Source of the DNA: Bacteroidota bacterium
Lineage (GTDB): Bacteria; Bacteroidota; Bacteroidia; J057; JADKCL01
Direction: 5' to 3'
Assembly: GCA_031415375.1 (NCBI GenBank)
Contig: JANORP010000378.1
Location: 48,936-112,935, forward strand
Length of the DNA: 64,000 nt
Positions 11,549 to 58,652 of the stretch are shown one piece after another. Below the pieces are notes generated by a model. The model had not been told where the DNA came from and did not search any database. It worked only from the letters and a program-made list of their open reading frames with translations. The position numbers were made by a program, and so were the translations under genes. Numbering within the stretch: the stretch's first letter is position 1; every line of letters begins with the position of its first letter.

Positions 11549-14032
11549 ATGCCCAGCACCGCCCTCCCCATCCAAGAAATCATCCCAGCGCTCCTGCGAG
11601 CGCTGGCAGACCACCCCATCGTCATCTTGGAGGCCCCGCCTGGCGCGGGCAAATCGACCGAATTGCCGCTGCACTTGCTGCATGCACCGTGGCTGCAAGG
11701 ACAGAAGATGCTCATGCTGCAACCACGCCGCCTTGCGGCGCGCGCGGTTGCGACGCGTCTTGCTGCACAGCTCGGCGAGCAAGTCGGGGAAACCGCCGGC
11801 TACCGCGTGCGCTTCGAACGCAAGATCAGCGCCCAGACCCGCATCGAGGTGCTCACTGAGGGCTTGCTCACCCGCCACATCCAGCAAGACAATGCCCTGG
11901 AGGGCATCGGGCTGCTGATCTTTGATGAATTCCACGAGCGCTCGCTCCATGCAGACCTCGCGCTGGTGCTCGCGCGGCAGGTGCAGGAGGTGCTGCGCGA
12001 CGACCTGCGCATCCTCATCATGTCGGCCACGCTCGACACCGCCGCGCTCTCGCAATTGCTGGGAAATGCACCCGTGATCACGAGTAAGGGCCGCCAACAT
12101 CCGATCGACATCCGCTACAGCCCCGTGCCCGATGGGCAGCGGCTCGAAGGCCATCTCGCCGCCACGGTGCGCAAGGCCCTCCGTGAGGACCAGGGCGACA
12201 TCCTCGCCTTCCTCCCCGGCGCCGCCGAAATCGGCCGCGTGGCCGAGGCATTGTATGAAAATCTGCCTGCTGGCATCCATCTGCACATGCTTTATGGCGA
12301 CCTGCCGCTGCCGCAGCAGCAGGAAGCCATCCTGCCCGACCCCGAAGGAAGGCGCAAGGTGGTGCTGGCCACGACGATTGCCGAGACCAGCCTCACGATC
12401 GAGGGCGTCCATGTAGTCATCGACGCTGGGCTGGCGCGGGTGCCGCGGTTTGACCCGCGCTCGGGCCTTACACGCCTAGAGACGCTCAGCGTGACCCGCG
12501 ACGCCGCCGACCAACGGGCAGGCCGCGCAGGTCGCCTCGGCCCCGGCGTGGCCTACCGCCTCTGGGCAGAGGGCAGCCACCAATACCTTCAAGCCCAACG
12601 CGAACCCGAGATCCTCCAAGCCGACCTCGCGCCCATGGCCCTCGAACTCGCCTATTGGGGTGTGACCGAGATGCGGGACTTGGGCTGGCCCACGCCGCCG
12701 CCTGTCGGGCATTTGAACCAAGCCTTGGAGCTGCTTACGCAGCTTGAAGCTTTGGAAAATGGCCGCATCACGGCCCGTGGCAAGGATTTGCTGCGCCTGC
12801 CGACCCATCCGAGGCTGGCGCACATGCTCGCGGAGGGCGAGGCATTGGGGCTCGCTGGCCTGGCCTGCGACATCGCGGCGCTGCTGGAGGAGCGCGACCC
12901 GCTCCCGCGCGAAGCGGGTGCAGACCTCTGCCTACGCCTGGACGCATTGCGGCTGCACCGCACGGGCGGCCGCTCGCAGGGCGAGAGCGCGGGCCTGCGC
13001 AAGCTGGAACAGCTCTCTCAGGCTTGGCGCAAGATCTTGCGCTGCAATGCCCATGATCGACCTGTCGAGGCCCAAGATGCTGGGCGCTTGCTCGCCGCCG
13101 CCTACCCCGAACGTGTTGCCAAGCGCGTCGGGCATCATCCGCCCACTTACCGCCTCAACAATGGCCGTCGGGGCAGCATCCAAGGGCACGACGCGCTCGC
13201 CGACCACGAGTGGCTGGCCATCGGGCTCATGGATGCTGGCTTGCAGGAAGGCAAGATTTTCCTCGCCGCGCCCTTGGATCCGCAGGATTTGAAGGGGCAC
13301 ATGAAGACACATTCAGTTTTGCATTGGGACCGGGCGCAGGGGCTGATCTTGGCGCAGACAGAGTTGCGGTTGGGCACGCTGCTGGTGTCGAGCAAGCCCG
13401 CACCCAAGCTCAGCGATGCGGAATGCGTGCCGATCTTGTGTGCAGCCATCCGCGAGCAGCCCGATTTGCTGGCTTGGATGGAGGCCGCGGTGGCTTGGCA
13501 GGCGCGTGTGTTGAGTCTGAGGTTGTGGCGACCGCAGGAAGATTGGCCGGATGTATCGACCGAGACGCTGCTGACGGATTTGGAGAAATGGCTGGGGCCC
13601 TACATCGGACATGTGCGGAAGCGGGATGATTTTAAGCGCGTGGACGTGCTGAGCTTGTTGTCGGCGCGCTTGCCCTGGGCGATGCAGCAGCAATTGGACG
13701 CCTTGGCCCCACAAAAGCTGGAGGTGCCGACGGGTTCACAGATTACCTTGGAATACTTTGCGGATGGCCGTGCGCCGATCTTGGCGGTACGCTTGCAGGA
13801 GATGTTTGGGCAGATGGACACACCGACGGTGAATCAGGGCCGCAATGCCGTCTTGATCCATTTGCTGTCACCCGCATACCGTCCCTGTGCCGTGACCCAA
13901 GACCTCCGCAGCTTCTGGATGAATGCGTATGCCGATACCCGCAAAGACCTGCGGGGCCGCTACCCTAAACACAGCTGGCCCGAAAACCCGCTCACCGCAG
14001 AGGCCGTGCGCGGCGTGAAGCGAAAATCCTGA
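11549..14032 (+). CDS. hrpB: ATP-dependent RNA helicase HrpB (DEAH-box)
   Basis: Walker A 'EAPPGAGKST', 'DEFHERS' (a DExH box), 'SATL' and 'TTIAETSLTIEGV', plus the long HrpB-type C-terminal domain. The start was moved to ATG 11549 (MPSTALPIQEIIP...), which is the typical HrpB N-terminus. The track start at 11504 remains possible. Confidence 0.9.
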   Translation: MPSTALPIQEIIPALLRALADHPIVILEAPPGAGKSTELPLHLLHAPWLQGQKMLMLQPRRLAARAVATRLAAQLGEQVGETAGYRVRFERKISAQTRIEVLTEGLLTRHIQQDNALEGIGLLIFDEFHERSLHADLALVLARQVQEVLRDDLRILIMSATLDTAALSQLLGNAPVITSKGRQHPIDIRYSPVPDGQRLEGHLAATVRKALREDQGDILAFLPGAAEIGRVAEALYENLPAGIHLHMLYGDLPLPQQQEAILPDPEGRRKVVLATTIAETSLTIEGVHVVIDAGLARVPRFDPRSGLTRLETLSVTRDAADQRAGRAGRLGPGVAYRLWAEGSHQYLQAQREPEILQADLAPMALELAYWGVTEMRDLGWPTPPPVGHLNQALELLTQLEALENGRITARGKDLLRLPTHPRLAHMLAEGEALGLAGLACDIAALLEERDPLPREAGADLCLRLDALRLHRTGGRSQGESAGLRKLEQLSQAWRKILRCNAHDRPVEAQDAGRLLAAAYPERVAKRVGHHPPTYRLNNGRRGSIQGHDALADHEWLAIGLMDAGLQEGKIFLAAPLDPQDLKGHMKTHSVLHWDRAQGLILAQTELRLGTLLVSSKPAPKLSDAECVPILCAAIREQPDLLAWMEAAVAWQARVLSLRLWRPQEDWPDVSTETLLTDLEKWLGPYIGHVRKRDDFKRVDVLSLLSARLPWAMQQQLDALAPQKLEVPTGSQITLEYFADGRAPILAVRLQEMFGQMDTPTVNQGRNAVLIHLLSPAYRPCAVTQDLRSFWMNAYADTRKDLRGRYPKHSWPENPLTAEAVRGVKRKS

Positions 14033-38254: not shown

Positions 38255-38277
38255 GGAAGGTGGACGACAAGATATAC

Positions 38278-38690
38278 ATTATGCAGATAATCAGGAGATT
38301 GTAAAATTTGCAAAACAATCGTTGCAAGGGGATCGTGTTGCCGCTGGATTGGAGGTGTCCTACGCTCTAGATCCCTTCCCGCAAATTGTGCGGGACGCTT
38401 CGTTCGGGATGATTTAGGAGCTTGGTCATTCGATCAGAAGGTCCTGATTGTCGAGATGGTCACTACCAATGACAAGTGATGTATTATCCAGATAATCAGC
38501 AAGTTGAAAAAATGAATAAATTCGTTGTGAAGGGATCGTGTTGCTGCTGGGCAGGGAGTGTATCTGTGCTCAAGATCCCTCGGCTACGCTCTGGATGACC
38601 AAGTGGGTTTGTCATTCGATCAAAAGGCAAATCCCATTTGTGTCCACTCGGGGTGACAAAGGGGTTACTGTTTGAGAAACGAATAGTCAT
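38278..38690. repeat. Two tandem ~205-bp degenerate non-coding repeats
   Basis: Both units begin ATTAT[G/C]CAGATAATCAG. They share TCGTTG..A.GGGATCGTGTTGC.GCTGG, a GATCCC...GGATGA hairpin and GTCATTCGATCA.AAG. Identity is roughly 70% by eye. Confidence 0.7.
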
Positions 38691-38725: not shown

Positions 38726-38881
38726 CTACTCCCGCTTCCCCACCACCTCAAAAGCCTTCTGCAGCCTTTCCCCCTCGTCATCGACGAGTGTGATCGTGTG
38801 CATCCCTACTGAGGGGTTGAGCGCCATTTGGTGAAAGGTCTCGGTCGTGCCGATGAAGGCGCGGTCGAGGTGCCAGTGGAT
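38726..38881 (-). pseudogene. Orphan duplicate of the pbpC 3' end (last 51 codons plus stop)
   Basis: It encodes IHWHLDRAFIGTTETFHQMALNPSVGMHTITLVDDEGERLQKAFEVVGKRE*. This matches the C-terminus of the intact pbpC at 41129..41284 except for A versus G at one position. No PBP body lies upstream of it. Confidence 0.85.
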
Positions 38882-38966
38882 GGGTGCGGCTGTGTGGAGA
38901 AGAATAGATGATTCGATGGAGCTGATCTTCTCCCAATTGCTTATCTTTGTAGAAATTGCGATTAGA

Positions 38967-39254
38967 ATGACTGAATTGCCAAATACTTTTGCTGAATTCT
39001 TTGCTGGGATAGGTTTGGTAAGGATGGGTCTTGAAAGGAACGGCTGGAAAATCCAATTTGCCAACGATATCGATCCTTCCAAACGTCGACAATACGAATT
39101 TCACTACAAAGATTCGCATTCCCACTTCCATTTGGGTGATATTCACGAATTGAATGCAGATTCAATACCCCCTGTAACTCTAGCTACGGCCTCGTTTCCG
39201 TGTACTGACCTTTCGTTGGCTGGAAAACGAGTTGGCTTAGGTGGTTCGAAGTGA
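38967..39254 (+). pseudogene. Truncated DNA (cytosine-5) methyltransferase, N-terminal ~95 aa only
   Basis: 'FAEFFAGIGL' is motif I (FxGxG) and 'SFPCTDLSLAG' is motif IV (PCxxxS). The ORF stops 12 codons later at 'GKRVGLGGSK*'. Motifs VI, VIII and X are absent. Confidence 0.75.
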
Positions 39255-39272
39255 ATTTTATGATTTCCAAGT

Positions 39273-40022
39273 TCAGAATCTAGCAGAATAGCTTATTTGT
39301 ATCGTTTCGACCTTTGTGAACTTAATCCTACTCCTTGCCGGATCGAAGAGAAAATCATGCCTTGGGGTTTGGTTGAAGTTCGAAACAATAAACAAGCAAT
39401 ACCGCGACGCTAGCAATTCGGCCACTTTAAATTCCTTTTCAGTCATTGAAATTGAACCTGAAACATCTGCTAAACCTTTTACCTCGACTCCCAGATGTTC
39501 CTTATTTTTCGTGAGGTAGAAGTCAAAGCCACAGCCAATCTGTGTCATGTCCTCAAGAACAAAACCTTGAAAAACGGGAAGGCTCGAATGATTCGTCTTG
39601 AAATACTCCTCGGCTGCCCGTCCTGTGATCAACCTTTTTGCAACCGATGTATCATTCGAGGGAATGTCGAATTTCTCCAGCAATATTCTAGCAGTAACAT
39701 CGGGCACCACTAAGCTCTGAATCAGTTGGCTTAGCGAATTCAAACTCCAATTAGAATATTCGGTCATGTAACGCGTGCAATATTCCCGAGGAGTTGCCCG
39801 TTTCCTGCCTACCCTATCGTTCGCGAAAAATGGGTCAAATTCATCACGATAGCTCTTGATCGAAAGAGGGCGAATACCAATCGCAAGGCCAAGCGTATTG
39901 TACGCTTGAATGAAGCCATCAAAACCCAGAGCGTCGAGCCCTGATTTGCTAAATCTCGAAAGGAAGTAACCAACTATGATTGCTTTTGAACGTAATTCCT
40001 GATTGATCGGTTTATGTCCCAT
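39273..40022 (-). CDS. DUF3883-like restriction-endonuclease-fold protein
   Basis: The C-terminal segment 'GRAAEEYF...GCGFDFYLT...HLGVEVKGL...ISMTEKEFKVAELLASRYCLFIV' follows the D...EVK PD-(D/E)xK pattern typical of DUF3883. ATG 40022 is preferred over TTG 40121. Confidence 0.6.
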   Translation of the reverse strand: MGHKPINQELRSKAIIVGYFLSRFSKSGLDALGFDGFIQAYNTLGLAIGIRPLSIKSYRDEFDPFFANDRVGRKRATPREYCTRYMTEYSNWSLNSLSQLIQSLVVPDVTARILLEKFDIPSNDTSVAKRLITGRAAEEYFKTNHSSLPVFQGFVLEDMTQIGCGFDFYLTKNKEHLGVEVKGLADVSGSISMTEKEFKVAELLASRYCLFIVSNFNQTPRHDFLFDPARSRIKFTKVETIQISYSARF

Positions 40023-40127
40023 AGGTATCCAGAAAATATGCGAATTCTCATTGCTGCAAATTAGACCGCTTTGTGCTATCTTGCAATAGCCATTGGGTGC
40101 CTTGCCAGTTGTCAAATTCAAAACTTG

Positions 40128-41114
40128 ATGCAGATAAAGATGGGTATGAATAGTGTTGATCCTAGACAGCTTTTTGAAACTTGGTTTTCCAACCTCCGAA
40201 AGGTAGGGTCTGACAGGTGGCCGACAAGGGGAACGATCTCAACTACTTTGGTGGTGCTAGATCGTCTCATTGAAGACTTCGATCTTAATTTTCACTCTCA
40301 CATTTGTAGAGGCGGAGTACAAATGAAAGGCGTTTCGCATAAAAAGGTTGTTTCTATCTTGAAAAGATGTGGGTCGAATAAATTCGTCGCAAGCGAAGGA
40401 GGACGAACAAATAGAAGCGGGCAGGGAGATTTGCGCCCACTTTTTGATGCATGGCAGGCGGTAGATTGGACCCTCATTTCAGAATCTGAACGAAATAGTC
40501 TCCTGAGGGAGCTGCAAAGTTTTCTCGTCGCTCGAATCGGGGACTTCCACAATCGCCAAAGGATAAAATTAGTTTTTACATTACAGACCCCAACAAGATC
40601 AATTATTAGGAATTTGGTAGAAGTAGCATCTATTTCTGGAAAATCGGGTGCCGTTGCCCAGCATCTGGTGGGTGCGAAATTGCAATTGCGCTTTCCAACC
40701 GAATCGATTTCCAATGAAGGAACCACCTCAGCAGACCTTCAAACCAAACGCCATCGAGATTTTCAGGTCGGGGAGACCGTCTTTCATGTCACAATGGCAC
40801 CGCAGTCTGCAGTATTCTTAAAATGCAATGAGAATCTCAAAGAAGGGTTATTGGTGTATCTCATTGTGCCACAGGACAAGCTTGAAGCAGCACGCGCATA
40901 CGCGATGGAATTTTGTAAGGGTCAAGTTGCCGTTGAAGCACTAGAATCATTCGTCGCCCAGAATTTGGATGAAATAGGAGCATTCCGTGTAAAGGGCTTT
41001 TTGAATAGTCTTGGTGAATTAATCCAATTGTACAATTACAGAGTGGCTGAAGTTGAACTCGACAAATCTATCATGATTGACTTACCAGAATCCATGAGGG
41101 ACAACAGGTACTAG
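40128..41114 (+). CDS. Hypothetical protein, possibly a DUF4928-like putative restriction-enzyme component
   Basis: An intact ~328-aa ORF, divergent from the DUF3883-like gene across a 105-bp spacer. The segment 'GAVAQHLVGAKLQLRF...DFQVGETVFHVT' recalls the DUF4928 proteins often found beside dcm genes. This is recollection only. Confidence 0.45.
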   Translation: MQIKMGMNSVDPRQLFETWFSNLRKVGSDRWPTRGTISTTLVVLDRLIEDFDLNFHSHICRGGVQMKGVSHKKVVSILKRCGSNKFVASEGGRTNRSGQGDLRPLFDAWQAVDWTLISESERNSLLRELQSFLVARIGDFHNRQRIKLVFTLQTPTRSIIRNLVEVASISGKSGAVAQHLVGAKLQLRFPTESISNEGTTSADLQTKRHRDFQVGETVFHVTMAPQSAVFLKCNENLKEGLLVYLIVPQDKLEAARAYAMEFCKGQVAVEALESFVAQNLDEIGAFRVKGFLNSLGELIQLYNYRVAEVELDKSIMIDLPESMRDNRY

Positions 41115-41128
41115 TAAATTGCAATCCC

Positions 41129-43582
41129 TCACTCCCGCTTCCCCACCACCTCAAACCCCTTCTGCAGCCGTTCCCCCTCGTCATCGACGAGTGTGATCGT
41201 GTGCATCCCTACCGAGGGGTTCAGCGCCATTTGGTGAAAGGTCTCCGTGGTGCCGATAAATGCGCGGTCCAGGTGCCAGTGGATTTTGCTGCTTTGCCTG
41301 CGGTGCGCGGCTTCAAAGACCACGCTGCTCACGTTGCCGCTGAGGTCGATGGGCACATAGACCTTGCTGCTTGTGCGGGGATAGACAAATTCCATGTTGG
41401 TGCTGTTGGCTTCGGCCTCGGCGGCTTCTTTGCAGTCGGCGCGCCAGGGGGGCAGGGGCAGGTAGTCGGCGTGCTTGCGGCGGTACCACTCCTCCTCGCT
41501 CGGCGCGAGGATAAACCATGGCTTGTGGACCATGTTGCCGGGGGATTCGCAGTCGCTGTGCACGCGAAATTGCCCCGTCGGGTCCAGGTGGATCATCTTG
41601 TGGTAGGGGCAAGGCTCAGTGTTCACGCCGCGTGCTGGCACGCGCATGAGCATGAGCTCGTCACACGTTTCGCTGGCGCGGTGGCCGCTTTGCTTGCAGA
41701 CGGTAATCTCCTCCTCGTCGTCAAAGGGTTCGTCAAACCAGACATTGGGGGTGTGGATCATGTTGAAGAGGTCGAAGAGAATGGGTGCAGCGGCGTAGAG
41801 GCCGATGAGGCCGGGGCGACCCTCGCCATCAGCATTGCCGGCCCAGACGGCGACGACGTGCGTGGGCGTGACGCCGACGGCCCAGGCGTCGCGGTAGCCG
41901 TAGCTCGTGCCCGTCTTCCAAGCCACCCGCCGCGAACTGCTGAAATTCATCCATTCGCTCTCGCCCTCAGGGCGGGCGAGTTCGAGCAGGGCATCGAGGG
42001 TTTTGTAGCAAGCCGCCGCGCCCAGGGGCGACTCGTCGGTGAGGACGGGTTTGTAATTTTGCTGCTGGGTGATGGAATGGGCCATGACGTAGTTGGGCGC
42101 ATGAAAGCCGCCTTGGACATAGTGGCCGTTGAAACGATGGTAATCATTCACAGTGCGGGCCATGCTGGCATACATGCCGGCAAGGTCCCAAAGTGTGGCC
42201 TCGGCCCCGCCGAGGATCAGCGAAAGGCCATAGTCATCGGCTGAGCGGTCGAGCGTGGTCATGCCCAGGGATTGCAAGCGCAGCAGGAATTTCTGATGCC
42301 CATAGTCGCTCAGCATCCTGATCGCGGGGATGTTCAGCGAACGTGCAAGCGCCATCTTGGCGGGCACGGCGCCGTCAAAGGTGCGGTTGTAATTTTGCGG
42401 ATTGTAGGCACCGTAATAGGTAGGAATGTCGGGCACGAGGGTATTGGGGAGCAGCTCGCCGTCGTCGAGCATGGAAGCATAGAGAAAAGGCTTCAAAATG
42501 CTGCCTGTGCTGCGCCTTGCACGGATCACATCGACCTCATGCCCGCTCGTGCTGTCGCTCGGGCGCGTATTGCCCACGTAGGCGACCACATCGCCCGACT
42601 CGACCTCAATCACGATGGCGGCGGCATTGTGGACACTGTTTTCCAAAAGGCGGCGTTGGTGCGCTTGCAGGATGTGGCTCGCGCGCTCCTGCATGTGCAT
42701 GTCGAGGGTGCTGCGCATGCGCTGCCCGCTGCCGGCCTCCGCAAGGCTGCGGTCGAGCAGGTGGGGTGCAAAGTCTGGCAATGGATGTGGCCGATCGGGG
42801 AGAGGCTCCTCCATGGCGAGCAGACAGGTCACAGAGTCGATCATGGCATCTTCCCACATGCGCTTGAGCAGGCGGTCACGCTTGGCTTTGAGAGCGCTGC
42901 GGTTGCGACCGGGATGGATGAGTGCAGGTGCATTGGGCAAGACAGCCAGAGTGGCACTTTCGGCCCAGCTCAGCTTGTCGGGGCCGCGCCCAAAGTAGCG
43001 CCATGCCGCTGCGTCGAGGCCCACGACATTGCCCCCAAAAGGTGCATTGCTGGCATACATCGCAAGGATTTCCTGTTTGGAATAGCGCATTTCTACGCGC
43101 AGGGCCATCACGGCCTCGACGGCCTTTTGCCAGAGGCTGCGGCGCTGACCTTTGCGGCTCATGCGCAGCACCTGCATGGTGAGGGTTGAGCCGCCGCTCA
43201 CGAGGCGTCCGTTGGTGACATTCTGCCACATGGCCCGCCCGAGGGATGGGAGATCGACGCCGGGGTGGATGTAAAAGCGTCGATCCTCAAAGGTGGTAAT
43301 ACACTTGGCAAATTTCTCGGGGACGGTGTCGGATGCTGGAAAGCGCCATTGGCCATCGTCGGCGATGCGGGCGCCGAGCAGGTTGCCTGCGCGGTCTTCC
43401 AAGACCATGGAGAGCGGGTCATGGAAGAGCTGCTTGGGGATCAGGAAATAATGCCACCAAATCCCGAAGGTCACCAGCCACAGCAGGATCTTCCAGCGCG
43501 GCTTGAACAGCCATCGCCGCAAGGTGCCGAGGGCCGAGCGTCCTTTTTGGAGCATGCTTTTCAATGATTGGAAGAGGCGCAC
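41129..43582 (-). CDS. pbpC: Penicillin-binding protein 1C (bifunctional transglycosylase/transpeptidase)
   Basis: GT51 motifs are 'EDRRFYIHPGVD' and 'GGSTLTMQ'. Transpeptidase motifs are 'STGSILKP' (SxxK), 'SLN' and 'KTGTS'. The PBP1C-specific C-terminal domain is present. The gene sits downstream of an alpha-2-macroglobulin gene. The start is GTG 43582 or ATG 43555. Confidence 0.9.
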   Translation of the reverse strand: MRLFQSLKSMLQKGRSALGTLRRWLFKPRWKILLWLVTFGIWWHYFLIPKQLFHDPLSMVLEDRAGNLLGARIADDGQWRFPASDTVPEKFAKCITTFEDRRFYIHPGVDLPSLGRAMWQNVTNGRLVSGGSTLTMQVLRMSRKGQRRSLWQKAVEAVMALRVEMRYSKQEILAMYASNAPFGGNVVGLDAAAWRYFGRGPDKLSWAESATLAVLPNAPALIHPGRNRSALKAKRDRLLKRMWEDAMIDSVTCLLAMEEPLPDRPHPLPDFAPHLLDRSLAEAGSGQRMRSTLDMHMQERASHILQAHQRRLLENSVHNAAAIVIEVESGDVVAYVGNTRPSDSTSGHEVDVIRARRSTGSILKPFLYASMLDDGELLPNTLVPDIPTYYGAYNPQNYNRTFDGAVPAKMALARSLNIPAIRMLSDYGHQKFLLRLQSLGMTTLDRSADDYGLSLILGGAEATLWDLAGMYASMARTVNDYHRFNGHYVQGGFHAPNYVMAHSITQQQNYKPVLTDESPLGAAACYKTLDALLELARPEGESEWMNFSSSRRVAWKTGTSYGYRDAWAVGVTPTHVVAVWAGNADGEGRPGLIGLYAAAPILFDLFNMIHTPNVWFDEPFDDEEEITVCKQSGHRASETCDELMLMRVPARGVNTEPCPYHKMIHLDPTGQFRVHSDCESPGNMVHKPWFILAPSEEEWYRRKHADYLPLPPWRADCKEAAEAEANSTNMEFVYPRTSSKVYVPIDLSGNVSSVVFEAAHRRQSSKIHWHLDRAFIGTTETFHQMALNPSVGMHTITLVDDEGERLQKGFEVVGKRE

Positions 43583-46700: not shown

Positions 46701-49379
46701 ATCGGCATCGACGGTGACGACCTGCACTTTGTGGTCGATGTCGGTGAGGATCATGCCGCGCGCCTTGTCGCCCTTGGGGATCTTGATGCCCACAAAGCGG
46801 TCATAAGGGTAATAGGGCAGACTAAAGCGGTCGGTGGAGAATGCGCCACCAGGCTCGAAGACTTTGGTCACGAAGTTGGCGTTGAGTTTTCCCGGCGCAT
46901 TTCCACTGAGTGCGATTTTGAGGGGAATTTTGGCGATGCCATCCTCATCGACCTTGCCTTCAAAGATCGTCTGGCGCTCTGCGTCAAATTTGCGCACGGG
47001 GTCGTCAAATTCATAGTCTGCATACCGCTTGAAGCTGGTAGGCGTGGATGTGAGGGCGACACTTACGTCGGCAGCGAGGTTTTTGGCGATGGCGCCATGC
47101 AGCCATTGCACCTCTAGCTTGCCCTCCATGTTTTCCATTTCCTTGGAGAGAAATTCTTTGCCAAAGTCGATCTTGATCTTGAGGCGGTTGGGCATCACCG
47201 TCTCGATCTTGATCGTCTTGTCAAAGCTTGCGCCGCCGACATCGACCCGCAGATTGTAATTTCCGGTAGGGGCATTGTCTGCGGTGGCGGTTTGGTAGGT
47301 ATAGACGCCATTGACATGGCTGGTCTTGATACTTTTGTTCACGAGCTGCCCGAGGGAGTTGGTCAGGGTGAATGTGACAGGGTGATCTGCGGGCAATGAG
47401 CTCAACTCATCCTCCAACATGAAGGTGCTGAAAATCGTGTCGCCGGGTCGCCAGACGCCGCGCTCGCCATAGATAAAGCCCTTCACGCCTTTGTAGTAGC
47501 GCTGCCCGCTGATGTCAAATTTGCTCAAGGAGAGTGCGTAGCCATCGCCCAGCTTCAGGTATCCCCGCTGATTGCCTTGCTTGGCCACGATCACAAAGGG
47601 CACGATATCGACATCTGCCGTGGCGATGCCCTCGCTATTGGTACTGAGGCGCTTGAGGACTTGGCGTTGGTAATCGTAGATCTCGATGTCCACGCCGCCG
47701 AGGGGCGCGGTGGTGTGCAAATCATTGACGGCGATCGTCATCGTGCCATCGGTGCCACGCTTGGCGATGATGCCGAGGTCGCTTGCGAGGATGTTGCGGC
47801 TTGCACCACGGCTTTCGTAGGTGTAGTAGGCCTTGTGGCAAGGATTGTCGCGGTTGTCCCAGGTATCGCCATAGTCGGTGTCGTCATAGTATTCCCAATA
47901 GCTGCTTTCATCGCCATTGTCGCTCCAAGCGCCTTCTTCTTCGGCAGGCTTCTTCTTCGATTCGGATTCCCCGGCAGCCTCGGCCTCTGCTTCACAAGTA
48001 TAGATGGAGTGCTCCTTGCTAAAATTGACTGTGACGCGGTAGATGGCACCGGGCTCGGAATTGATGAGGCTGCCCAGGTCGATGATGTGACGGTTCCATT
48101 GGTGCAGGTTCAGGGACTTGTCGCCGTCGAGGCGCACGGTGCTGCGGTGCACGACCTTGCCTACGCGCTGCAATTCGCGGTCGCCCTCGAGGTCATTGAC
48201 TTGGAGGAATTGGAGGATGTTGTTTTCATAGATCTTCATGATCTCGAGATCGACGGCCTTGAGGCTCACGGCCTCAAATGCAAAGGGGAGCTGTGCACCA
48301 GCGCGGGGCAGGATGTTGCCATTGCCAGCAATGCGCACCTCTGGCTTGAGTTCTTCAAATTGAATGTCGAAGGTCTTGCCTTCCTTGAGCTTGTGGCCGA
48401 GGATGTTTTGCACGCCCGGCGATACCGTAAGCGTGTGCTCGCCGGTGGTACGCACAGCGGGAAAGACCTTTACGTCATTGCCTTCGACGGTATAGCGCAG
48501 CCGCATGTCGCCGAGGCGGATGAGGCCATTGAGGTCTTGTGCCTTGCGGATTGGGTCGCTGAATGTGAGCACGACATATTGGTCGGGATCGTTGTAGGTT
48601 TTGTATTCCATTACCGCAAATTCGCCGAGGGCTGGAATGCGTACCTCCGTTTTGCCTTCCTTGTCGATGCCCAAGGCATCGCCATCCCAAGAGATGGTGA
48701 CCATCGAGGCCGACCCGCCACGGCGCAGGCTATCCACCCTGAAGGTATGCTCGCGCCCATCAAGGCTATGCGACCACTTTACACGAAATTGGTCGTCGTC
48801 TTGCTCGGCCGTCAGCACTTTTTCGACAAGTTCTGGAAACTCATAGTCGGCCGTGGTGAGCGTGCCGTTGAGCGCTTGCCAGATGAGTTTTTGTTTGTCG
48901 AGGGTCTCGATGCCGAGCACGCTCACTTCAAAATTTTGCTGCTCGGTCTCAAATTGGAACGGGAATGTCTGCAATTTGTCTTCAAGGCCCGTGACAAATT
49001 TTCCCAATTCAAAGGTCGCTGTGTAAAATTGAGCGGTCGGCATGGGCTTGCTGGACTCAAATTGCAAGGTGCGGGCATCGATCCAAATGGCTTTGCCCTC
49101 TAGCTCAGGCTCAAACGTGAAGGGGTTCTCGCTGAGTGCAACGCCGATCTGATCGTCCTTGACGGCGTTCTCATTGAGTCGCACCTTGATCGTGGACTGT
49201 CGAGAGATCTTGCCTGTCGTGTAGGCCCCAATGTAGGGCGCAAAAGCTTCGTCAAATTTGTAATCGTGCGTCACTTGCTTCTTGCTGCAAGCGATCAGCA
49301 GTGTGAGACAAAGCACTGCGAGAAGTGTTTTGCTGAGGCTGGGAGGGTTAAAAATCTTCATGGGATTCGGTATTGGCAA
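43725..49379 (-). CDS. Bacterial alpha-2-macroglobulin family lipoprotein (1,884 aa)
   Basis: Lipobox 'LTLLIAC'. Thioester motif 'GCVEQ' in 'LEYPHGCVEQTTSS'. The size, the MG-domain architecture and the conserved synteny with pbpC all fit. Confidence 0.9.
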   Translation of the reverse strand: MPIPNPMKIFNPPSLSKTLLAVLCLTLLIACSKKQVTHDYKFDEAFAPYIGAYTTGKISRQSTIKVRLNENAVKDDQIGVALSENPFTFEPELEGKAIWIDARTLQFESSKPMPTAQFYTATFELGKFVTGLEDKLQTFPFQFETEQQNFEVSVLGIETLDKQKLIWQALNGTLTTADYEFPELVEKVLTAEQDDDQFRVKWSHSLDGREHTFRVDSLRRGGSASMVTISWDGDALGIDKEGKTEVRIPALGEFAVMEYKTYNDPDQYVVLTFSDPIRKAQDLNGLIRLGDMRLRYTVEGNDVKVFPAVRTTGEHTLTVSPGVQNILGHKLKEGKTFDIQFEELKPEVRIAGNGNILPRAGAQLPFAFEAVSLKAVDLEIMKIYENNILQFLQVNDLEGDRELQRVGKVVHRSTVRLDGDKSLNLHQWNRHIIDLGSLINSEPGAIYRVTVNFSKEHSIYTCEAEAEAAGESESKKKPAEEEGAWSDNGDESSYWEYYDDTDYGDTWDNRDNPCHKAYYTYESRGASRNILASDLGIIAKRGTDGTMTIAVNDLHTTAPLGGVDIEIYDYQRQVLKRLSTNSEGIATADVDIVPFVIVAKQGNQRGYLKLGDGYALSLSKFDISGQRYYKGVKGFIYGERGVWRPGDTIFSTFMLEDELSSLPADHPVTFTLTNSLGQLVNKSIKTSHVNGVYTYQTATADNAPTGNYNLRVDVGGASFDKTIKIETVMPNRLKIKIDFGKEFLSKEMENMEGKLEVQWLHGAIAKNLAADVSVALTSTPTSFKRYADYEFDDPVRKFDAERQTIFEGKVDEDGIAKIPLKIALSGNAPGKLNANFVTKVFEPGGAFSTDRFSLPYYPYDRFVGIKIPKGDKARGMILTDIDHKVQVVTVDADGNPKGERKVEMTLYKLDWKWWWDQTANSETTYNEKFYQEQVSKDTISVRNGEGTWKFNVKYPAWGRYMVRACDEGGHCTGQVVYIDWPGWAGRSQKDNPGGATMLTFSADKENYKVGENVTLTIPTGKAGRALVSLESGAKVISTHWVESNGLDAASYTFPATAEMAPNIYAHVSLIQPHAQTVNDLPMRMYGVIPIEITDPKTELKPKIIVGDVLAPMERVDVGVSEATGQAMTYTVAVVDEGLLDLTRFETPNPWASFYAREALDVKTWDLYDKVIGAYGADLTKLLGIGGDDGMAPKEGSKQNRFRPVVKFMGPFSLKPGETKKHSFMMPNYVGAVRTMVVARNGSAYGSSEKSSRVRKPLMVLGTLPRVLGPGEELRLPVTVFAMENHVKDVNVTLDASDIFTINGPKTKSLSFARPGDELVSFELAVKERIGKGTVKVTARSGSEVAIYHIDIDVRNPNPKVVNVTEKAVDANQAWTQSVAYPGMVGTNKGTLELSTIPPINLGKRLKYLLEYPHGCVEQTTSSVFPQLYVSNLIDMPAGMQQQIDKNIRAGLDRLETFQQASGGLSYWPGTGEVDEWGTNYAGNFIVEAKNKGYRVSQTFLTKWIAFQKKAAKNWSATARAGQLIQGDRLYLLALAGSPELGAMNRLRETPGLDNVAQWRLAAAYKLAGQPETAVRLSKDLAIAVPKYQEQCFTYGNDIRDQAIILECIGIIGNRVRGAELSKKVSTALSKDEWMSTQTTGYCLIAMAKYAGLSQGQNSKMEYAYRINGGNWVDGSSAKPIAQIDLAIGHGTQSSIELKNKGTGILFARVIAEGIPAKGDQDASQNHVSLAVNYFDMQGAPLDPTTLEQGTDFVAEITMKNPGTKGDLDELALTQIFPSGWEIHNTRMDGTGFEKAIAQPDYQDIRDDRVFTYFDLGSPGQKARYPWAYPTRKSEENEKTFRILLNASYLGKFYLPTVYVEAMYDNSISARIPGKWVTVVTPENS

Positions 49380-53766: not shown

Positions 53767-53949
53767 ATGATAACTGAAAACGTGGGTCAAGTAAGCAATG
53801 AAGCGGTTGCCAGTCAATCGGCCGTCCTAGTGTTAGATGCCAAAATGGTGCCTGGTCCGGTGTTGAGGAGATTAATCGAAGAGGTAAGGCATGATCGCCA
53901 AAACAACATTACGGCCTATGATCGCCTACACAATCGTCACAATCGTTGA
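53767..53949 (+). CDS. Candidate RiPP precursor peptide (60 aa, or 34 aa from Met27)
   Basis: MITENVGQVSNEAVASQSAVLVLDAKMVPGPVLRRLIEEVRHDRQNNITAYDRLHNRHNR. Its stop codon overlaps the first possible start of the radical SAM gene. A 370-bp AT-rich region lies upstream. Confidence 0.55.
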   Translation: MITENVGQVSNEAVASQSAVLVLDAKMVPGPVLRRLIEEVRHDRQNNITAYDRLHNRHNR

Positions 53950-55100
53950 TTGCTGTGGATGAGGAATGCACTCGGGTGGATTTAGATACTGTGCTACTGA
54001 AAGTTGCGAGTCGGTGCAACATTGATTGTACCTATTGTTACGTGTACCAAATGGGTGATGATCAGTGGACTCGTCTGGGTAAATTTATGTCCAATGAGAC
54101 AATTGAGGCCGTATGCACTTCACTTCAAGCTCTTTCAAAAAGTCAAGCTTCCCGATTTAGCGTTGTACTTCATGGTGGGGAACCGCTCCTTCTAGGAGCC
54201 TCAAGGTTGAAATACCTATTGGAGTCTTTGCGAAATGTTTTGCCTTTGGAGTATCCGATTAGCATCCAGACAAATGGGATCTTGATCACGACCGAGCTTT
54301 TGGATATTTGTTCCACCTTTCGTGCTAGCTTGTCGGTGAGCATCGATGGACCAAGGCAGCTCCACGATGCTCAGAGAATTAAGTTTGATGGTGGCGGTAC
54401 TTTTGATGAAGTTTTGCGTGGGATCGAGATGCTCGAGTCACACTCAGATGCCTTGTTTTTATATGCAGGGCTTTTGGCGGTAGTTGACCCTTGCTCGGAC
54501 CCTCAAGAGGTGTACACCTTCTTCAAAACAATCGGAGCGCCAAGCGTGGACTTCCTCTATAAGGATGGAAACCATTGCAGACTGCCCCTTTCCAAGGCCT
54601 TTTTCGAGTCAGTTGAATACGGCTCATGGATGGCTAGCCTCTTCAACATTTACATTTCCGACCCAGATCCGATCCGTATCCGCATTTTGGATGATATGAC
54701 AAAAGCAATCTTGGGTGGCCTCATCTCCAAGGAAGGAATGGGCGTTTCAGATTTTGGAATCCTCATCATCGATACTGATGGGACGATTGCCAAAAATGAT
54801 ACATTGAAAAGCTCCTTCAATGGTGCGGATCGGTTTTCCGTTTCTCGGAATATCAGGGATACTGTCTTGGGTGAATTTTTGAAATCCGACGAGTTTCAAG
54901 CTTACCGCCGCATGCAACGGCCATCTTGCCTTCAGTGTTCTCTTTGCCCGGAATTGAAAGTCTGCGGCGGAGGGATGACCTTGCATCGTTGGAGCGATGA
55001 CAATGCTTTCAACAATCCTTCAATTTACTGCTCTGATCAGCTTTACCTGATCGGAATGATTCGGCAGCAACTTGCTCAATATCAGATTGTTTATGCCTGA
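53946..55100 (+). CDS. Radical SAM/SPASM-domain peptide maturase (FxsB-like)
   Basis: 'RCNIDCTYCY' is the CX3CX2C cluster. The C-terminal 'CLQCSLCPELKVCGGG...IYCSDQ' is a SPASM-type auxiliary-cluster motif. The start is TTG 53946 or GTG 53955. Confidence 0.85.
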   Translation: MIAVDEECTRVDLDTVLLKVASRCNIDCTYCYVYQMGDDQWTRLGKFMSNETIEAVCTSLQALSKSQASRFSVVLHGGEPLLLGASRLKYLLESLRNVLPLEYPISIQTNGILITTELLDICSTFRASLSVSIDGPRQLHDAQRIKFDGGGTFDEVLRGIEMLESHSDALFLYAGLLAVVDPCSDPQEVYTFFKTIGAPSVDFLYKDGNHCRLPLSKAFFESVEYGSWMASLFNIYISDPDPIRIRILDDMTKAILGGLISKEGMGVSDFGILIIDTDGTIAKNDTLKSSFNGADRFSVSRNIRDTVLGEFLKSDEFQAYRRMQRPSCLQCSLCPELKVCGGGMTLHRWSDDNAFNNPSIYCSDQLYLIGMIRQQLAQYQIVYA

Positions 55101-55686
55101 AACCTCTTGCATTGATTTTTCCAAGATTCAACGGGAAAGCAATCCATTTAGTCATTTCTACCTGACCTCTGTGTTACGAGAGCATCTGGACAAAGAACTC
55201 TTCGAATGGTTGGAGCAGACTGACGCTTGGCAATCAGTCGAAACCGATTTTTATGAACAGTATGAGTTTTCGCTTCAAAGTGTCGCGCTTCCAGCTCGCT
55301 TGTCTTGCCTCGTAGCCGAGAAGACGATTCGGGAAACACGGCAAACAATGCAGGAGATATTTTTGGTAGAGAAGCTTGATTTGGTGGGAATTGTTGCGCA
55401 CAAATTGGTAGAAGGACAGCACATTGGAATTCACAACGACTTCATTGAGGGTGAAGAGACGCATCGCCTAGTGATACAGATCAACCCCCATTGGACCGAA
55501 AGCAATGGTGGGTACCTCATGTTATTCAACTCTCAGGACGTGGAGGATGTTTCAAAAGTGATCTCCCCGATCAACAATACTGCCTTTGGCTTTGAAATAT
55601 CAAAGGATTCTCACCACGCAGTTTCCAAAATCTATGGCCTCCCTAGGTACAGCATTGTCTACACGTTCCGGTTGCGCGACAAATGA
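55093..55686 (+). CDS. 2OG-Fe(II) oxygenase superfamily protein (prolyl-4-hydroxylase-like)
   Basis: 'HIGIHNDF' is the HxD motif, 'GGYLMLF' follows, 'SHHAVSKI' supplies the distal His, and 'PRYSIVYTF' supplies the Arg. ATG 55093 overlaps the rSAM stop by 8 nt. Confidence 0.75.
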   Translation: MPETSCIDFSKIQRESNPFSHFYLTSVLREHLDKELFEWLEQTDAWQSVETDFYEQYEFSLQSVALPARLSCLVAEKTIRETRQTMQEIFLVEKLDLVGIVAHKLVEGQHIGIHNDFIEGEETHRLVIQINPHWTESNGGYLMLFNSQDVEDVSKVISPINNTAFGFEISKDSHHAVSKIYGLPRYSIVYTFRLRDK

Positions 55687-56537
55687 ACCTTACCCAGTTG
55701 ATCCATCGATATCTCGCAGCCCCTTTTCCTATTTGGAACCTTGAGCTGACAGAAACGCTAGTCCAGAAAAAATGGATGGAATTGGAAGGAATCGAAATTC
55801 AAAGCCGAGAGAACTACTCTACAGCTGCTAGCTATCATCAAAAAGGGATGTCTGTAGGAGTCAGATCGCAACTACAGCATGCTAGCCAACCAAAAATGTA
55901 CCAGGAAGCCCCAAATGCTGAACTGCTTGGTGTCTTCTATGACAAACATGGACTAGAGCTACTGAGTGAGCAGGATTTGAAGGAAAGTGATGCGATCGTT
56001 AAGCTTGAGGAGTCAATCGCGATGCTAGATTTGGTGCCGCATCTTGGCGCTTGTGTGGCCCTTTTGGTGAGGTCAATACAAGTTTTGAAGCAAGAGGGTC
56101 CTCAGACTGACCTCAGTTACAGTCATCCAAAGATTCCTTTCTCGATTTTCGTTTCGGTTTGTGAGGATCGCTCCATGATATCTACACTGCGTGTAGCAGA
56201 GTCCATTCTTCATGAAGCGATGCACCTATTTCTCACGCTCATAGAGGATGAGGCCCCTCTGGTGAAGGATGACGCTATTGGGAAGTTCTATTCTCCATGG
56301 AAGCACGAAAACAGGAATGCGCGGGGAATTTTGCACGGAGCTTTCGTTTTTAGGGCCATTTGGGAGTTTTGCGAGCGTTTGCGCAATGATGACCTTGCCC
56401 CCCAAGAAAAGAAGTATGTGATCAACCGTCAAACGACGATTTCAGAAGAACTGTCGTTACTGCCAGAGTTTAGTGACAATTCGGACCTCACTAGAGATGG
56501 GGCCACCCTGATAGCAAGTCTATTGCCATTGAGCTGA
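55683..56537 (+). CDS. HExxH-motif peptide-modification protein (aKG-HExxH / TIGR04267-like)
   Basis: Contains 'ESILHEAMHLFLTLIED'. An ATGA overlap joins it to the upstream oxygenase gene. The ~280-aa size and the position next to an rSAM/SPASM gene fit the family. Confidence 0.7.
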   Translation: MNLTQLIHRYLAAPFPIWNLELTETLVQKKWMELEGIEIQSRENYSTAASYHQKGMSVGVRSQLQHASQPKMYQEAPNAELLGVFYDKHGLELLSEQDLKESDAIVKLEESIAMLDLVPHLGACVALLVRSIQVLKQEGPQTDLSYSHPKIPFSIFVSVCEDRSMISTLRVAESILHEAMHLFLTLIEDEAPLVKDDAIGKFYSPWKHENRNARGILHGAFVFRAIWEFCERLRNDDLAPQEKKYVINRQTTISEELSLLPEFSDNSDLTRDGATLIASLLPLS

Positions 56538-57240
56538 ACTCGGATTCTGGCTTCATTGATTGCAGCAAACCAATTCTGGTAGGCAAAATTATCGGATCGT
56601 CTTTATCGATATGAAATCGAGCAAGAAGCGCTTCGATCCACTGCATCTCCTTCAAAAGTCTAAAATGGAGCCTTTGACGAGCAATTACGAAGCTCTCATC
56701 ACGTAACCCTAGAATCTTAATGGTTTGGCGACCTCGAAAAGTCCTGCCTTCAATTTCCCAACCTCTAAAACGGATATGGCATCTAGGATCTTCTTTGGAT
56801 GGGTTAATGAGTATTGGCTCTTCCGCATCGGCATCATGGTGGCTCTTCATTCTCTTGGTTGAATCAACCAATGGAAAGAAGTTCCTTTTCTTACTCGTGT
56901 TTGGCAACGGTTTGCAAAGCAGTAAATTCTCCCAGCTGTAAGCCAGCCAGTAGTACCCTGGAGTTAGTGATCCTCCCTTTCTCCATGGCCATTCGTCAAT
57001 TCTGCCTTTTGGACGATAGTGCTCAACGGGCGGCAAATCTCCAACGAAGTAGGCCTCGCTGAAACAACATTTGTTGTGCTGACAATGCTTCAATGCTTCG
57101 ACAACGGCTTTGATCTTATAGGTACGATAAAACTTAAGTTTTCTGCCTCCTTTGTCGTATTCCAATTTCAACTCATCAGTTCTTGGCTTGCCCAATTTTT
57201 CCAATTTTGGTGGACACGGGTCTTTGAATATTTGGATCAT
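56491..57240 (-). CDS. ptuB: Septu PtuB-like HNH nuclease (TIGR02646-like)
   Basis: 'NKCCFSEAYFVGDLPPVEHYRPKG' and 'YSWENLLLCKPLPNTSKKRNFFP' align with the HNH core (His, then Asn). An ATGA overlap at 57237-57240 joins it to the upstream ATPase gene. Confidence 0.65.
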   Translation of the reverse strand: MIQIFKDPCPPKLEKLGKPRTDELKLEYDKGGRKLKFYRTYKIKAVVEALKHCQHNKCCFSEAYFVGDLPPVEHYRPKGRIDEWPWRKGGSLTPGYYWLAYSWENLLLCKPLPNTSKKRNFFPLVDSTKRMKSHHDADAEEPILINPSKEDPRCHIRFRGWEIEGRTFRGRQTIKILGLRDESFVIARQRLHFRLLKEMQWIEALLARFHIDKDDPIILPTRIGLLQSMKPESEFSSMAIDLLSGWPHL

Positions 57241-58652
57241 TTCATTAGCCCTCGTGCTTTGAGTTGTTCTGTGGCAGCTTGGATTTGATCCAAAAATCGC
57301 TGATCCTCTTCGTTTTCGGCTACAGGAATTTCGACAAGTAATCTATCTAGTTCATCCAACCGAAGTCGATCCTCATCCGTTTTCGTATCCTGGTCAAGAA
57401 TTTCCCGCCGCTCCTGAATTAAACCCTCAATCTCGGGGCTTCTGTCACTCCCAAGTCCAAAAAGCTCACCTGTCGCAAACAGTCCAATGCGGCCACCTTT
57501 GATGACATACGGCTCACTGTCAATGATCACAACCCCGTCTTCTCGTCTAAGCACAACTAGGTTCTCCGACTCGGACGCCTGAGCCATAAAGGGGCTATGG
57601 GCAGTGCAGATAAATTGAGTATTCTTGAAATGATGTACCAATTTCTTTTTGAGCGATCGTTGCCAAGATGGATGCAAATGCAGATCAATCTCATCTACCA
57701 AGACAACAGCTGGCTCGTTAAGTGGCGAATCGCTATCACGATTTCGGAGTAACATTCGAAACGCGAGGTCGGCAATCCATGCAAACATGGTTTGATAACC
57801 AAGGCTGAGGGCTTGAAAGGGAACTAGCCCACTCGGCATCGCAATCTCCACCAATCGATCGTTTCGTTTGCCCTCCTTATAATATTCATTGACCGTTATT
57901 TTCTCTGGCGTTCCATCAAGATCTGGTAATAGGTCTGATAATACCTCTTTAACCTTCATGAAAAATCTTGTCGCTGGACCTTCTTCAGTGGTTCTAACTC
58001 TTTCGGCATTCGAATCGGAAAACAACTTGTAAAGTAGGTCCTCGGGATCAAACAACTCGTTGGAATTGGTTAACAGATTGGAGGCAGAGTCTTTGAGTAA
58101 TATTTCGCTTTCAAGATTGTTTACGCCTAAATGTCTATTTGCTGCGTAGGCAAATACATTCATGGACCCAAATTCAAGCAATTCCCCTGGATTCACGTCA
58201 TACTTTTCAAGTTCCCAGTTTTCAATTTCGAAAGAAATGGAATGCTCAGTTTGTTCTTTGTCAGTTGGTATTTCCCCAAGTCCGACGCCAAAGGACAGTG
58301 ATGATCCCACAAACGACTTGACAGTTGCCCCCACCATTGCAATTCTTTCCCAATCAGAATTGTTAGCCAGAACTTCGTCCATTTCTGGTTTTATCTTGAC
58401 GGGGCCTGAGTTAATTTTGGGGCCTGCGCTGTCACCGTCCTTCTTTGGTAACGCCTCAACGTCTGGCCTCATCCATGCCAAACACTTCAACAACGTCGTT
58501 TTTCCCATCCCATTGTCTCCAAGGATCAGCGTCCATCTGGCGATAGCCCCTTTTTCGTCGACAAGCTTCAATTGGCTTTCGCCAAGACAGTTGATATTCT
58601 TTACCTTCAGTGAGGTAAAATACATCGGGGTCACACTATTTTTTTCGTCCAT
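57237..58652 (-). CDS. ptuA: Septu PtuA-like AAA/ABC-type ATPase
   Basis: The N-terminal 'LKVKNINCLGE...WTLILGDNGMGKTTLLKCLAW' carries the Walker A motif. 'VVLVDEIDLHLHPSWQRSL...FICTAHSPF' carries the Walker B and D-loop region, in the AAA_15/21 style. Confidence 0.7.
   Translation of the reverse strand: MDEKNSVTPMYFTSLKVKNINCLGESQLKLVDEKGAIARWTLILGDNGMGKTTLLKCLAWMRPDVEALPKKDGDSAGPKINSGPVKIKPEMDEVLANNSDWERIAMVGATVKSFVGSSLSFGVGLGEIPTDKEQTEHSISFEIENWELEKYDVNPGELLEFGSMNVFAYAANRHLGVNNLESEILLKDSASNLLTNSNELFDPEDLLYKLFSDSNAERVRTTEEGPATRFFMKVKEVLSDLLPDLDGTPEKITVNEYYKEGKRNDRLVEIAMPSGLVPFQALSLGYQTMFAWIADLAFRMLLRNRDSDSPLNEPAVVLVDEIDLHLHPSWQRSLKKKLVHHFKNTQFICTAHSPFMAQASESENLVVLRREDGVVIIDSEPYVIKGGRIGLFATGELFGLGSDRSPEIEGLIQERREILDQDTKTDEDRLRLDELDRLLVEIPVAENEEDQRFLDQIQAATEQLKARGLMK

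Follow-up and report, generated by a model that had tools for sequence, protein, structure and literature searches.

How can a restriction gene persist beside the remains of the methylase that should accompany it? The question is raised by a 2.25-kb insert in a Bacteroidota bacterium, located within a stretch of 64,000 nucleotides (nt) that was analyzed as a whole (positions 48,936 to 112,935 of contig JANORP010000378.1, assembly GCA_031415375.1; hereafter the window). The insert contains a truncated C5 cytosine methyltransferase (methylase) gene, a NOV_C/DUF3883 nuclease gene on the opposite strand, and a gene for a DUF4928 protein, a predicted type II restriction endonuclease that is now without its methylase. 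Of the routes by which a restriction-modification (R-M) system can decay, only the one in which the methylase goes first is expected to kill the cell. The window shows a locus of this kind, on which the means of survival could be tested directly.

Replacement of methylase codons by a NOV_C gene

The methylase stub (38967..39254, plus strand) encodes 95 amino acids (aa), beginning with MTELPNTFAEFFAGIGL and ending with ATASFPCTDLSLAGKRVGLGGSK, followed by a stop codon. The original prediction described a dcm-like open reading frame (ORF) with motif I (FAGIGL) and motif IV (FPCTDLS) that stops at about residue 95, and this was confirmed by a match to positions 2-84 of 324 in the Pfam DNA_methylase profile (E = 6.5e-16); many PADLOC type II methylase models (MTase_II) match as well. 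The stub, which covers motifs I to IV, shares 67-68% identity with residues 8-98 of the methylases from Haliscomenobacter hydrossis (locus L001) and from a metagenome contig (L004), and only 30% with the 297-aa methylase linked to NOV_C in other loci. Sequence comparison identifies it as the N-terminus of the cognate methylase, a member of the ~395-aa family that partners DUF4928 proteins. The remaining motif set required for a functional type II 5-methylcytosine (m5C) R-M system, namely the target-recognition region and motifs VI-X, is absent from the stub. Its conservation equals that of intact family members (1/44 deviations; mean identity 0.62 versus 0.63), which reflects either a recent truncation or the same constraint as in other NOV_C-linked stubs. 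A pattern scan found a candidate Bacteroidota-type -7 box, TATCTTTG (38942..38949, plus strand; a consensus match only), 18 nt before the methylase ATG, which is probably the original operon promoter.

The original state of such a unit can be seen in H. hydrossis and on the L004 contig, where a 395-aa C5 methylase gene is located upstream of the DUF4928 gene in the same direction and overlaps it by 23-35 nt. A further comparison set comprised 80 metagenome loci with long-form DUF4928 genes (L092-L171), and a full-length overlapping methylase was found in nearly all of the ~60 loci in which upstream DNA is present. This agrees with the earlier tentative assignment of the restriction gene to DUF4928, described there as a family often found next to dcm genes. 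The long-form loci often carry Vsr, either downstream of the restriction gene or fused to the methylase; in L115, L117, L122, L123, L128, L130 and others it is fused to the methylase N-terminus in single ORFs of 490-616 aa. NOV_C stands beside long-form DUF4928 in none of the 80 loci. Decay in these loci mostly strikes the restriction gene, with a frameshifted DUF4928 gene and an intact methylase in L107, L116, L131, L153 and L163. By gene content and order, the insert is recognizable as a minimal type II m5C R-M unit, normally composed of a ~395-aa methylase gene and the overlapping gene of the predicted DUF4928 endonuclease.

Searches with tblastn detected nothing of methylase residues 99-395 within the insert, nor did they find a further C5 methylase in the 64-kb window. 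The missing segment would span ~900 nt, and 873 nt now separate the stop codon of the stub from the DUF4928 ORF, consisting of the NOV_C gene (750 nt) and flanks of 18 and 105 nt. The left junction (39255..39272) extends from the methylase breakpoint, with methylase homology ending at ~39250, to the NOV_C stop codon; its length is 18 nt, one less than the nineteen counted originally. The right junction is contained in the spacer that runs from the NOV_C start to the divergent DUF4928 ORF (40023..40127, 105 nt), in which neither a methylase remnant nor an exact -7 box was detected. We conclude from these alignments that a single-gene NOV_C cassette of no more than ~875 bp, here in the opposite orientation, has taken the place of methylase codons 96-395 in a clean replacement. 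The proposal that the DUF3883 gene had replaced most of the methylase thus stood as far as replacement is concerned, with codons 99-395 gone and NOV_C in the gap; the support does not extend to its second half, a nuclease pair created by that event. An interrupted-gene arrangement (intron or skin-like) was considered as well and dropped, because no C-terminal methylase fragments were found downstream of NOV_C in any locus examined or in the window. In an independent read assembly (Logan SRR20217188, locus L172), the sequence of 38780-41212 recurs with 100% identity, so the three-gene arrangement is not an assembly artefact.

The NOV_C gene (39273..40022, minus strand) encodes a predicted PD-(D/E)xK nuclease of 249 aa. 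The longer minus-strand ORF (39273-40121, 282 aa), which the original prediction had described as a DUF3883-like PD-(D/E)xK protein, indeed matches NOV_C/DUF3883 (PF13020; E = 3.8e-11, 43.4 bits versus a cut-off of 22.1) and keeps the catalytic residues. Its length was corrected to 249 aa with the ATG at 40022, the size of over 1000 homologues (244-255 aa in the family) and the start called by two gene callers. Each of the 53 columns that are invariant in an alignment of 32 sequences is retained, including D167, E180 and K182, and most of the 10 deviations at near-invariant columns are common to the sister protein P0122 (60% identity) and are therefore lineage traits. In the AlphaFold2 (AF2) model, the C-terminal domain (predicted local distance difference test score, pLDDT, ~90) matches the SPARDA nuclease subunit, Hjc, D212, EcoRV and SwaI, with a Foldseek probability of 1.0 for Hjc, D212 and the SPARDA nuclease subunit. 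Family membership, catalytic residues and the modelled restriction-endonuclease-like fold all point to a PD-(D/E)xK nuclease. The N-terminal ~105 residues are modelled as all-helical with modest confidence and gave no fold match. No Pfam match was found for residues 1-141 at E ≤ 1, no PUA, SRA or DUF3427 sensor in the N-terminal 140 aa, and no family for this domain in PADLOC, PHROGs, NCBIfam or Pfam. PADLOC TmtA models match residues ~156-268 of the 282-aa ORF. A profile relationship between NOV_C and DUF4928 was sought with hhalign and rejected (probability 0.5%).

The restriction gene (40128..41114, plus strand), divergent from NOV_C as originally described, is an ORF of 328 aa in the Logan call. 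Homologues begin at its Met7 (40146), the likely start of a 322-aa protein. The 263-aa NCBI call (P0001) starts at Met66, dropping 65 residues (40128-40322) that align with conserved N-terminal columns, and on this alignment is too short. The protein matches DUF4928 (PF16280) over profile positions 7-306 of 306 (E = 2e-86, 290.5 bits versus a cut-off of 25) and the PADLOC REase_II model PDLC03543 (E = 1.4e-44), and spans positions 6-319 of 320 of the family hidden Markov model (HMM), which is full length. Homology and gene context thus indicate that the adjacent restriction endonuclease gene expected of a functional R-M system is probably present. The AF2 model of the protein (pLDDT 81) has no significant PDB neighbour.

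Signs of decay in the restriction protein were sought in a family-wide comparison with 71 diverse DUF4928 sequences, whose distant members were retrieved by a library-wide HMMER search. It deviates at 1/32 columns with at least 90% conservation (family median 1), at 3/54 with at least 80% (median 4) and at 7/70 with at least 70% (median 9). The sole family-wide deviation is G210R, located just before the near-invariant D211 of a GDF motif; this position is Gly in 63/66 diverse homologues, Ala or Ser in the rest and never Arg, and G210R is a candidate for a disabling mutation. When divergence of the restriction protein was regressed on that of the methylase, the protein lay ~8 points beyond the prediction from the stub (residual -0.08, ~1 standard deviation). 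As far as can be judged from its sequence, the restriction ORF is full length and not visibly decayed. An apparent signal of relaxed selection, with deviations at 34/140 columns of at least 90% conservation versus 0-12 in the 31 closest homologues, was rejected because these columns proved to be clade-specific in a 72-sequence sample, in which the window protein is no outlier among diverse sequences. The earlier suggestion of a degenerating R-M system with an inactive restriction partner therefore holds for the methylase, which is degenerate, but not for the restriction gene, which is full length and has 31/32 conserved residues. No plus-strand terminator was predicted between the candidate promoter box of the stub and the restriction gene, so its read-through transcription is possible. 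The translational coupling to the methylase has been lost along with the gene overlap.

NOV_C genes beside methylase stubs in other genomes

The NOV_C family was surveyed using custom-built HMMs in 80 genome loci (of 332) from many phyla, which are mostly contigs of metagenome-assembled genomes and phylogenetically non-independent. An upstream co-directional region of C5 methylase homology is present in 46/80 loci: it is full length in 5, carries an internal deletion in 2 and is an N-terminal stub in 39, with none detected in the other 34. Thus, a stub or a deleted gene is all that is left in 41 of the 46 loci with methylase homology, and tiny motif-I remnants occur even in the weakly or non-scoring loci L034, L019 and L037. 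The stubs end at HMM positions 24-234 of 281 (297-aa type) or 33-149 of 397 (~395-aa type). Among 34 distinct breakpoints, 32 have the end of the stub ORF within 40 nt of the NOV_C ATG, and ATGA overlaps are found at seven stub/NOV_C junctions. A model with random deletion end-points gives 2.8 anchored junctions on average, and 32 were reached in 0 of 200,000 simulations. The phyla with the pairing range from Bacteroidota to Patescibacteria. Since the NOV_C family habitually abuts 5' stubs of m5C methylases in other genomes, its association with a dead methylase is a trait of the family rather than a local accident. No description of this family-wide pairing was found in the literature searched.

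Recurrent genes downstream of NOV_C in these loci encode a Cys-rich protein of 75-90 aa with a CxxC...CxxC pattern (the zinc-ribbon partner), then a 245-aa protein or a short-form DUF4928 protein, then Vsr; short-form DUF4928 adjoins NOV_C in 7/80 loci. For neither the zinc-ribbon partner nor the 245-aa protein was a match obtained from Pfam, NCBIfam, PADLOC or PHROGs; the PDB likewise contains none for the 245-aa protein. The order NOV_C, zinc-ribbon partner and 245-aa gene was seen in L008 (5744-6692) as well as in L016, L017, L014, L038, L088 and L089, and five loci with a truncated methylase retain an intact 245-aa gene. In two other loci, L018 (5124-6726) and L072 (5089-6726), a full ~297-aa methylase gene is directly followed by NOV_C with no other recognizable partner. 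P0122, the sister protein of the window NOV_C, is a stand-alone NOV_C with a zinc-ribbon partner. The window differs from the 80 comparison loci in that NOV_C is inverted (convergent with the stub), has no zinc-ribbon partner and adjoins a complete long-form DUF4928 gene.

Pairwise ratios of non-synonymous to synonymous substitution rates (dN/dS, Nei-Gojobori method) are 0.04-0.13 for NOV_C in stub-bearing loci and comparable, at 0.05-0.14, for the stubs, which are short sequences. Even where two stubs end at the same breakpoint (L027/L035, L025/L042 and L050/L059), the values are 0.05-0.09. A dead remnant is expected to drift towards a dN/dS of 1; the low stub values suggest either functional peptides or truncations far more recent than they appear. 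By this measure, NOV_C persists under purifying selection beside dead methylases. In L027 versus L032, the proportion of synonymous differences is 0.18 for NOV_C and 0.74, 0.61 and 0.80 for the stub, the zinc-ribbon partner and Vsr, respectively. These two loci differ in stub breakpoint (126 versus 155), and together with L035 they share a block of 92% identity from -37 to +834 relative to the NOV_C ATG. The low NOV_C value beside saturated flanks indicates that diverged operons have exchanged NOV_C at a later date than the genes around it. In other locus pairs, NOV_C dS is ~2-fold below stub dS or there is no discordance. The stub was also considered as a fused domain of NOV_C and this was rejected: a single fusion ORF was found (L042), and the best 120 hits are all stand-alone proteins of ~249 aa, none of them fused.

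Possible roles of NOV_C and of the leftover restriction gene

The account that we favour combines the replacement history with NOV_C as stand-alone cargo and DUF4928 as a leftover gene. Taken as a whole it is probable, if only by a modest degree, and its structural history is much firmer than its functional part. A NOV_C gene of a P0122-like lineage would have overwritten methylase codons 96-395 in a unit of a ~395-aa methylase and DUF4928. NOV_C would be maintained cargo, a stand-alone nuclease that reaches m5C R-M operons by recombination. It would be neither a classical methylase-dependent restriction enzyme nor an ordinary type II partner, because purifying selection on NOV_C continues where the neighbouring methylase is dead; a cell with NOV_C would thus be able to live without that methylase. 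The anchored junctions may mark a fixed end of the cassette, or selection for translational coupling of NOV_C to the methylase start. DUF4928 would then be left behind as a solitary restriction gene, and its tolerance would have one of three reasons: the enzyme may be crippled by G210R beside the conserved Asp, it may be poorly expressed after loss of the overlap with the methylase, or an unlinked methylase of equal specificity may be present elsewhere in the genome.

Several observations weigh against this account. The DUF4928 assignment is based on the PADLOC REase_II model and gene context, its structural model lacks a significant PDB neighbour, and both nucleases are putative. The window NOV_C is inverted and without the usual zinc-ribbon partner, unlike all 80 comparison loci, and its closest relatives (P0122, 60% identity) lack a methylase stub altogether. 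The minimal pairs of full methylase and NOV_C in L018 and L072 resemble ordinary type II pairs, and cassette transfer is clear in one trio only, other pairs having a ~2-fold lower NOV_C dS. Finally, the low dN/dS of the stubs is not predicted by a simple dead-remnant view.

The 34 breakpoints, the junctions at the NOV_C start codon and the purifying selection on the stubs suggest one of two things: a gene directed against R-M systems, or a previously unrecognized working partnership of stub and nuclease. If true, either reading would bring a new participant into the conflicts over DNA methylation and would explain some of the database annotations of 'solitary' restriction genes and 'truncated' methylases. 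A bolder reading, which we put forward tentatively and consider doubtful, makes the ~249-aa NOV_C family a hitherto unrecognized kind of mobile nuclease cassette that colonizes m5C R-M operons specifically. Such a cassette would join its own 5' end to a methylase gene at almost any position, destroy the methylase and use its promoter and translation start, while the stub left over would be under selection, as a partner or as a leader for expression. On this view, NOV_C would be either a genetic element living at the expense of R-M systems or a means by which hosts disarm them, and its inverted copy in the window, next to a restriction gene that is still intact, would be an unusual form.

The third of the reasons given for tolerance can be extended to a working R-M system whose parts have separated: DUF4928 would be active, an unlinked m5C methylase of the same specificity would protect the chromosome, and the linked methylase would have been redundant when it was overwritten. 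The full-length restriction ORF with its family-conserved residues is consistent with this, as is the conservation of the stub at the level of intact methylases, which suggests a recent loss. Distant cognate methylases were predicted for 57/272 solitary restriction genes (Ershova et al. 2012, PMC3488263). However, the search for a second m5C methylase called for by the original prediction, made within the 64-kb window, found none. The restriction gene has also lost its methylase overlap and has no promoter box before it, and G210R occupies a position that is Gly in 95% of the 66 diverse homologues and never Arg. We regard such a separated system as unlikely.

Alternatively, the locus may be in plain decay, in which the restriction enzyme was inactivated first (for example, by G210R), the methylase became dispensable, a stray NOV_C gene landed in it and nothing is functional now. 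Restriction-first decay is seen in the five relatives with a frameshifted DUF4928 gene and an intact methylase, G210R adjoins the near-invariant D211, and 99/272 solitary restriction genes were classed as fragments (Ershova et al., PMC3488263). Against this, there is no frameshift or premature stop in the restriction ORF, the stub or NOV_C; the restriction protein retains 31/32 conserved positions and NOV_C all of its catalytic and invariant residues. The recurrence of NOV_C beside methylase stubs also speaks against a chance landing, and plain decay appears quite improbable.

NOV_C could also be type IV-like, a modification-dependent nuclease whose target is DNA carrying the methylation of the neighbouring enzyme, so that the arrival of NOV_C selects for methylase loss. 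DUF3883 is the catalytic domain of enzymes dependent on 5-methylcytosine or 5-hydroxymethylcytosine, some of which are encoded next to C5 methylases of different specificity (PMC6765204), and the methylase is dead in 41 of the 46 NOV_C loci that retain methylase homology. On the other hand, a full methylase is located directly upstream of NOV_C in the genome loci L013, L016, L017, L018 and L072, plus L008 and L009, Vsr is kept in many stub loci, and the N-terminal 140 aa contain no detectable PUA, SRA or DUF3427 sensor. We regard a type IV-like role as very improbable.

Least likely of all is the two-gene defence module of the original prediction, a methylase-independent pair of NOV_C and DUF4928 that would have discarded the methylase when it formed: a DUF4928-domain gene, often with Vsr, does follow NOV_C in 7/80 loci (L019, L037, L049, L052, L060, L069 and L070), and NOV_C-type domains occur in defence proteins such as the Snf2-NOV_C fusion (in the available part of PMC11232893) and in the modification-dependent enzyme YenY4I (PMC6765204), but most of the seven partners are short forms (HMM positions ~130-319 only; L019 from 59; two fragmented or shorter) in co-directional order, whereas the window has divergent genes and the long form, whose 80 relatives never carry NOV_C, and the two proteins share no profile similarity and are covered by no PADLOC system.

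Relation to known systems and to the insertion site

The DUF4928 type II m5C operons, such as that of H. hydrossis (CP002691, L001), share with the window the two gene families, their order and their strand; the stub is 67% identical to the L001 methylase and the restriction protein 51% to the L001 DUF4928 protein. In contrast to these operons, the window has 95 of ~395 methylase residues, no gene overlap, a nuclease gene in between and no Vsr. Like the solitary type II restriction genes, the window has a restriction gene without a linked functional methylase, and the same three explanations apply as were given for those genes, namely a distant methylase, a fragment or no explanation (Ershova et al. 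2012, PMC3488263). It differs from them in having kept a remnant of the cognate methylase where the gene once was, which makes the history directly readable, and in that the agent of loss, a recurrent nuclease gene, is identifiable.

Free-standing homing endonuclease genes of phages (the Seg and Mob types) are small nuclease genes beside a conserved target gene, and homing normally preserves the neighbouring gene. The NOV_C family resembles them in the constant relative position of the nuclease gene and, in one trio, in a history discordant with the flanks, but the methylase beside it is truncated at 34 different positions.

DUF3883 is the cutting domain of characterized modification-dependent enzymes of the YenY4I and McaZI group (PMC6765204), and in the available part of another report a Snf2-fused NOV_C nuclease domain is described as conferring defence (PMC11232893). 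The window NOV_C shares with these proteins, and with TmtA of Tiamat (PADLOC), a predicted PD-(D/E)xK catalytic domain with the D...ExK motif. Unlike them, it is a stand-alone protein of 249 aa with an unrelated helical N-terminus, in which no PUA or DUF3427 sensor, ATPase or helicase was detected; it thus lacks the fused PUA, SRA or DUF3427 sensor that defines YenY4I/McaZI-type enzymes. The known classes nearest to the locus are solitary restriction genes, long-repeat R-M units and DUF3883 defence nucleases.

The insert is located at the 3' end of pbpC (41129..43582, minus strand), which encodes a PBP1C-type penicillin-binding protein with Pfam matches to Transgly, Transpeptidase and BiPBP_C. 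It is bounded by direct repeats of 154 nt with 94% identity. The right repeat (41131..41284, minus strand) is the functioning pbpC 3' end with a TGA stop, and the left one (38728..38881, minus strand; Pfam BiPBP_C match) is a displaced copy of the final 51 pbpC codons with its own TAG stop. Nine codons differ between the copies, eight synonymously and one non-synonymously. This 8:1 synonymous bias and the stop codon in each copy argue against a duplicate made in situ that has decayed neutrally; each copy probably evolved as a genuine gene end, which suggests that the unit brought its own pbpC copy along. The guanine-cytosine (GC) content of the insert is ~0.44, versus ~0.56 in the flanking region. 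The low GC content, the flanking repeats and the differences between the repeat copies show that the insert is foreign. An att-like copy carried by the element, or import of the unit along with DNA on its flanks, fits the repeat pattern better than duplication does. None of the three ORFs of the insert, its only ones, encodes a recombinase, integrase or transposase, and scans of the insert for Rfam families, tRNA genes, sigma-70 promoters and terminators gave nothing informative. The insert could be the remnant of a site-specific integrative element or could have been mobilized in trans.

Similar bare R-M units with long target duplications, in which repeats of 46-423 bp overlap the 3' end of a host gene, were described by Furuta et al. 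2010 (PMC2853133). The window shares with these the absence of a mobility gene, a GC content below that of the host and long direct repeats at a gene 3' end. Measured against the features used there to define such insertions (restriction and methylase genes, a length below 20 kb, direct repeats over 30 bp and no mobility gene), the insert qualifies at 2.25 kb with 154-nt repeats. It differs in that its repeats diverge almost only synonymously and each has a stop codon, one copy having probably evolved as a functional gene end in another lineage.

Between the left pbpC repeat and a type IX secretion system (T9SS)/SprB-repeat gene there are two imperfect tandem copies of ~175 nt (38266-38441 and 38471-38627; 74-78% identity), for which no Rfam match and no convincing ORF was found. 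A second low-GC block (~0.45) at 53946-58652 encodes a radical SAM protein, a 2OG-Fe(II) oxygenase, a 471-aa AAA_15/AAA_21 (AbiEii/OLD-like) ATPase and two ORFs without a Pfam match, and may be a defence or modification island. An isolated GC spike is located at 12001-13000 (0.683 versus ~0.56 around it).

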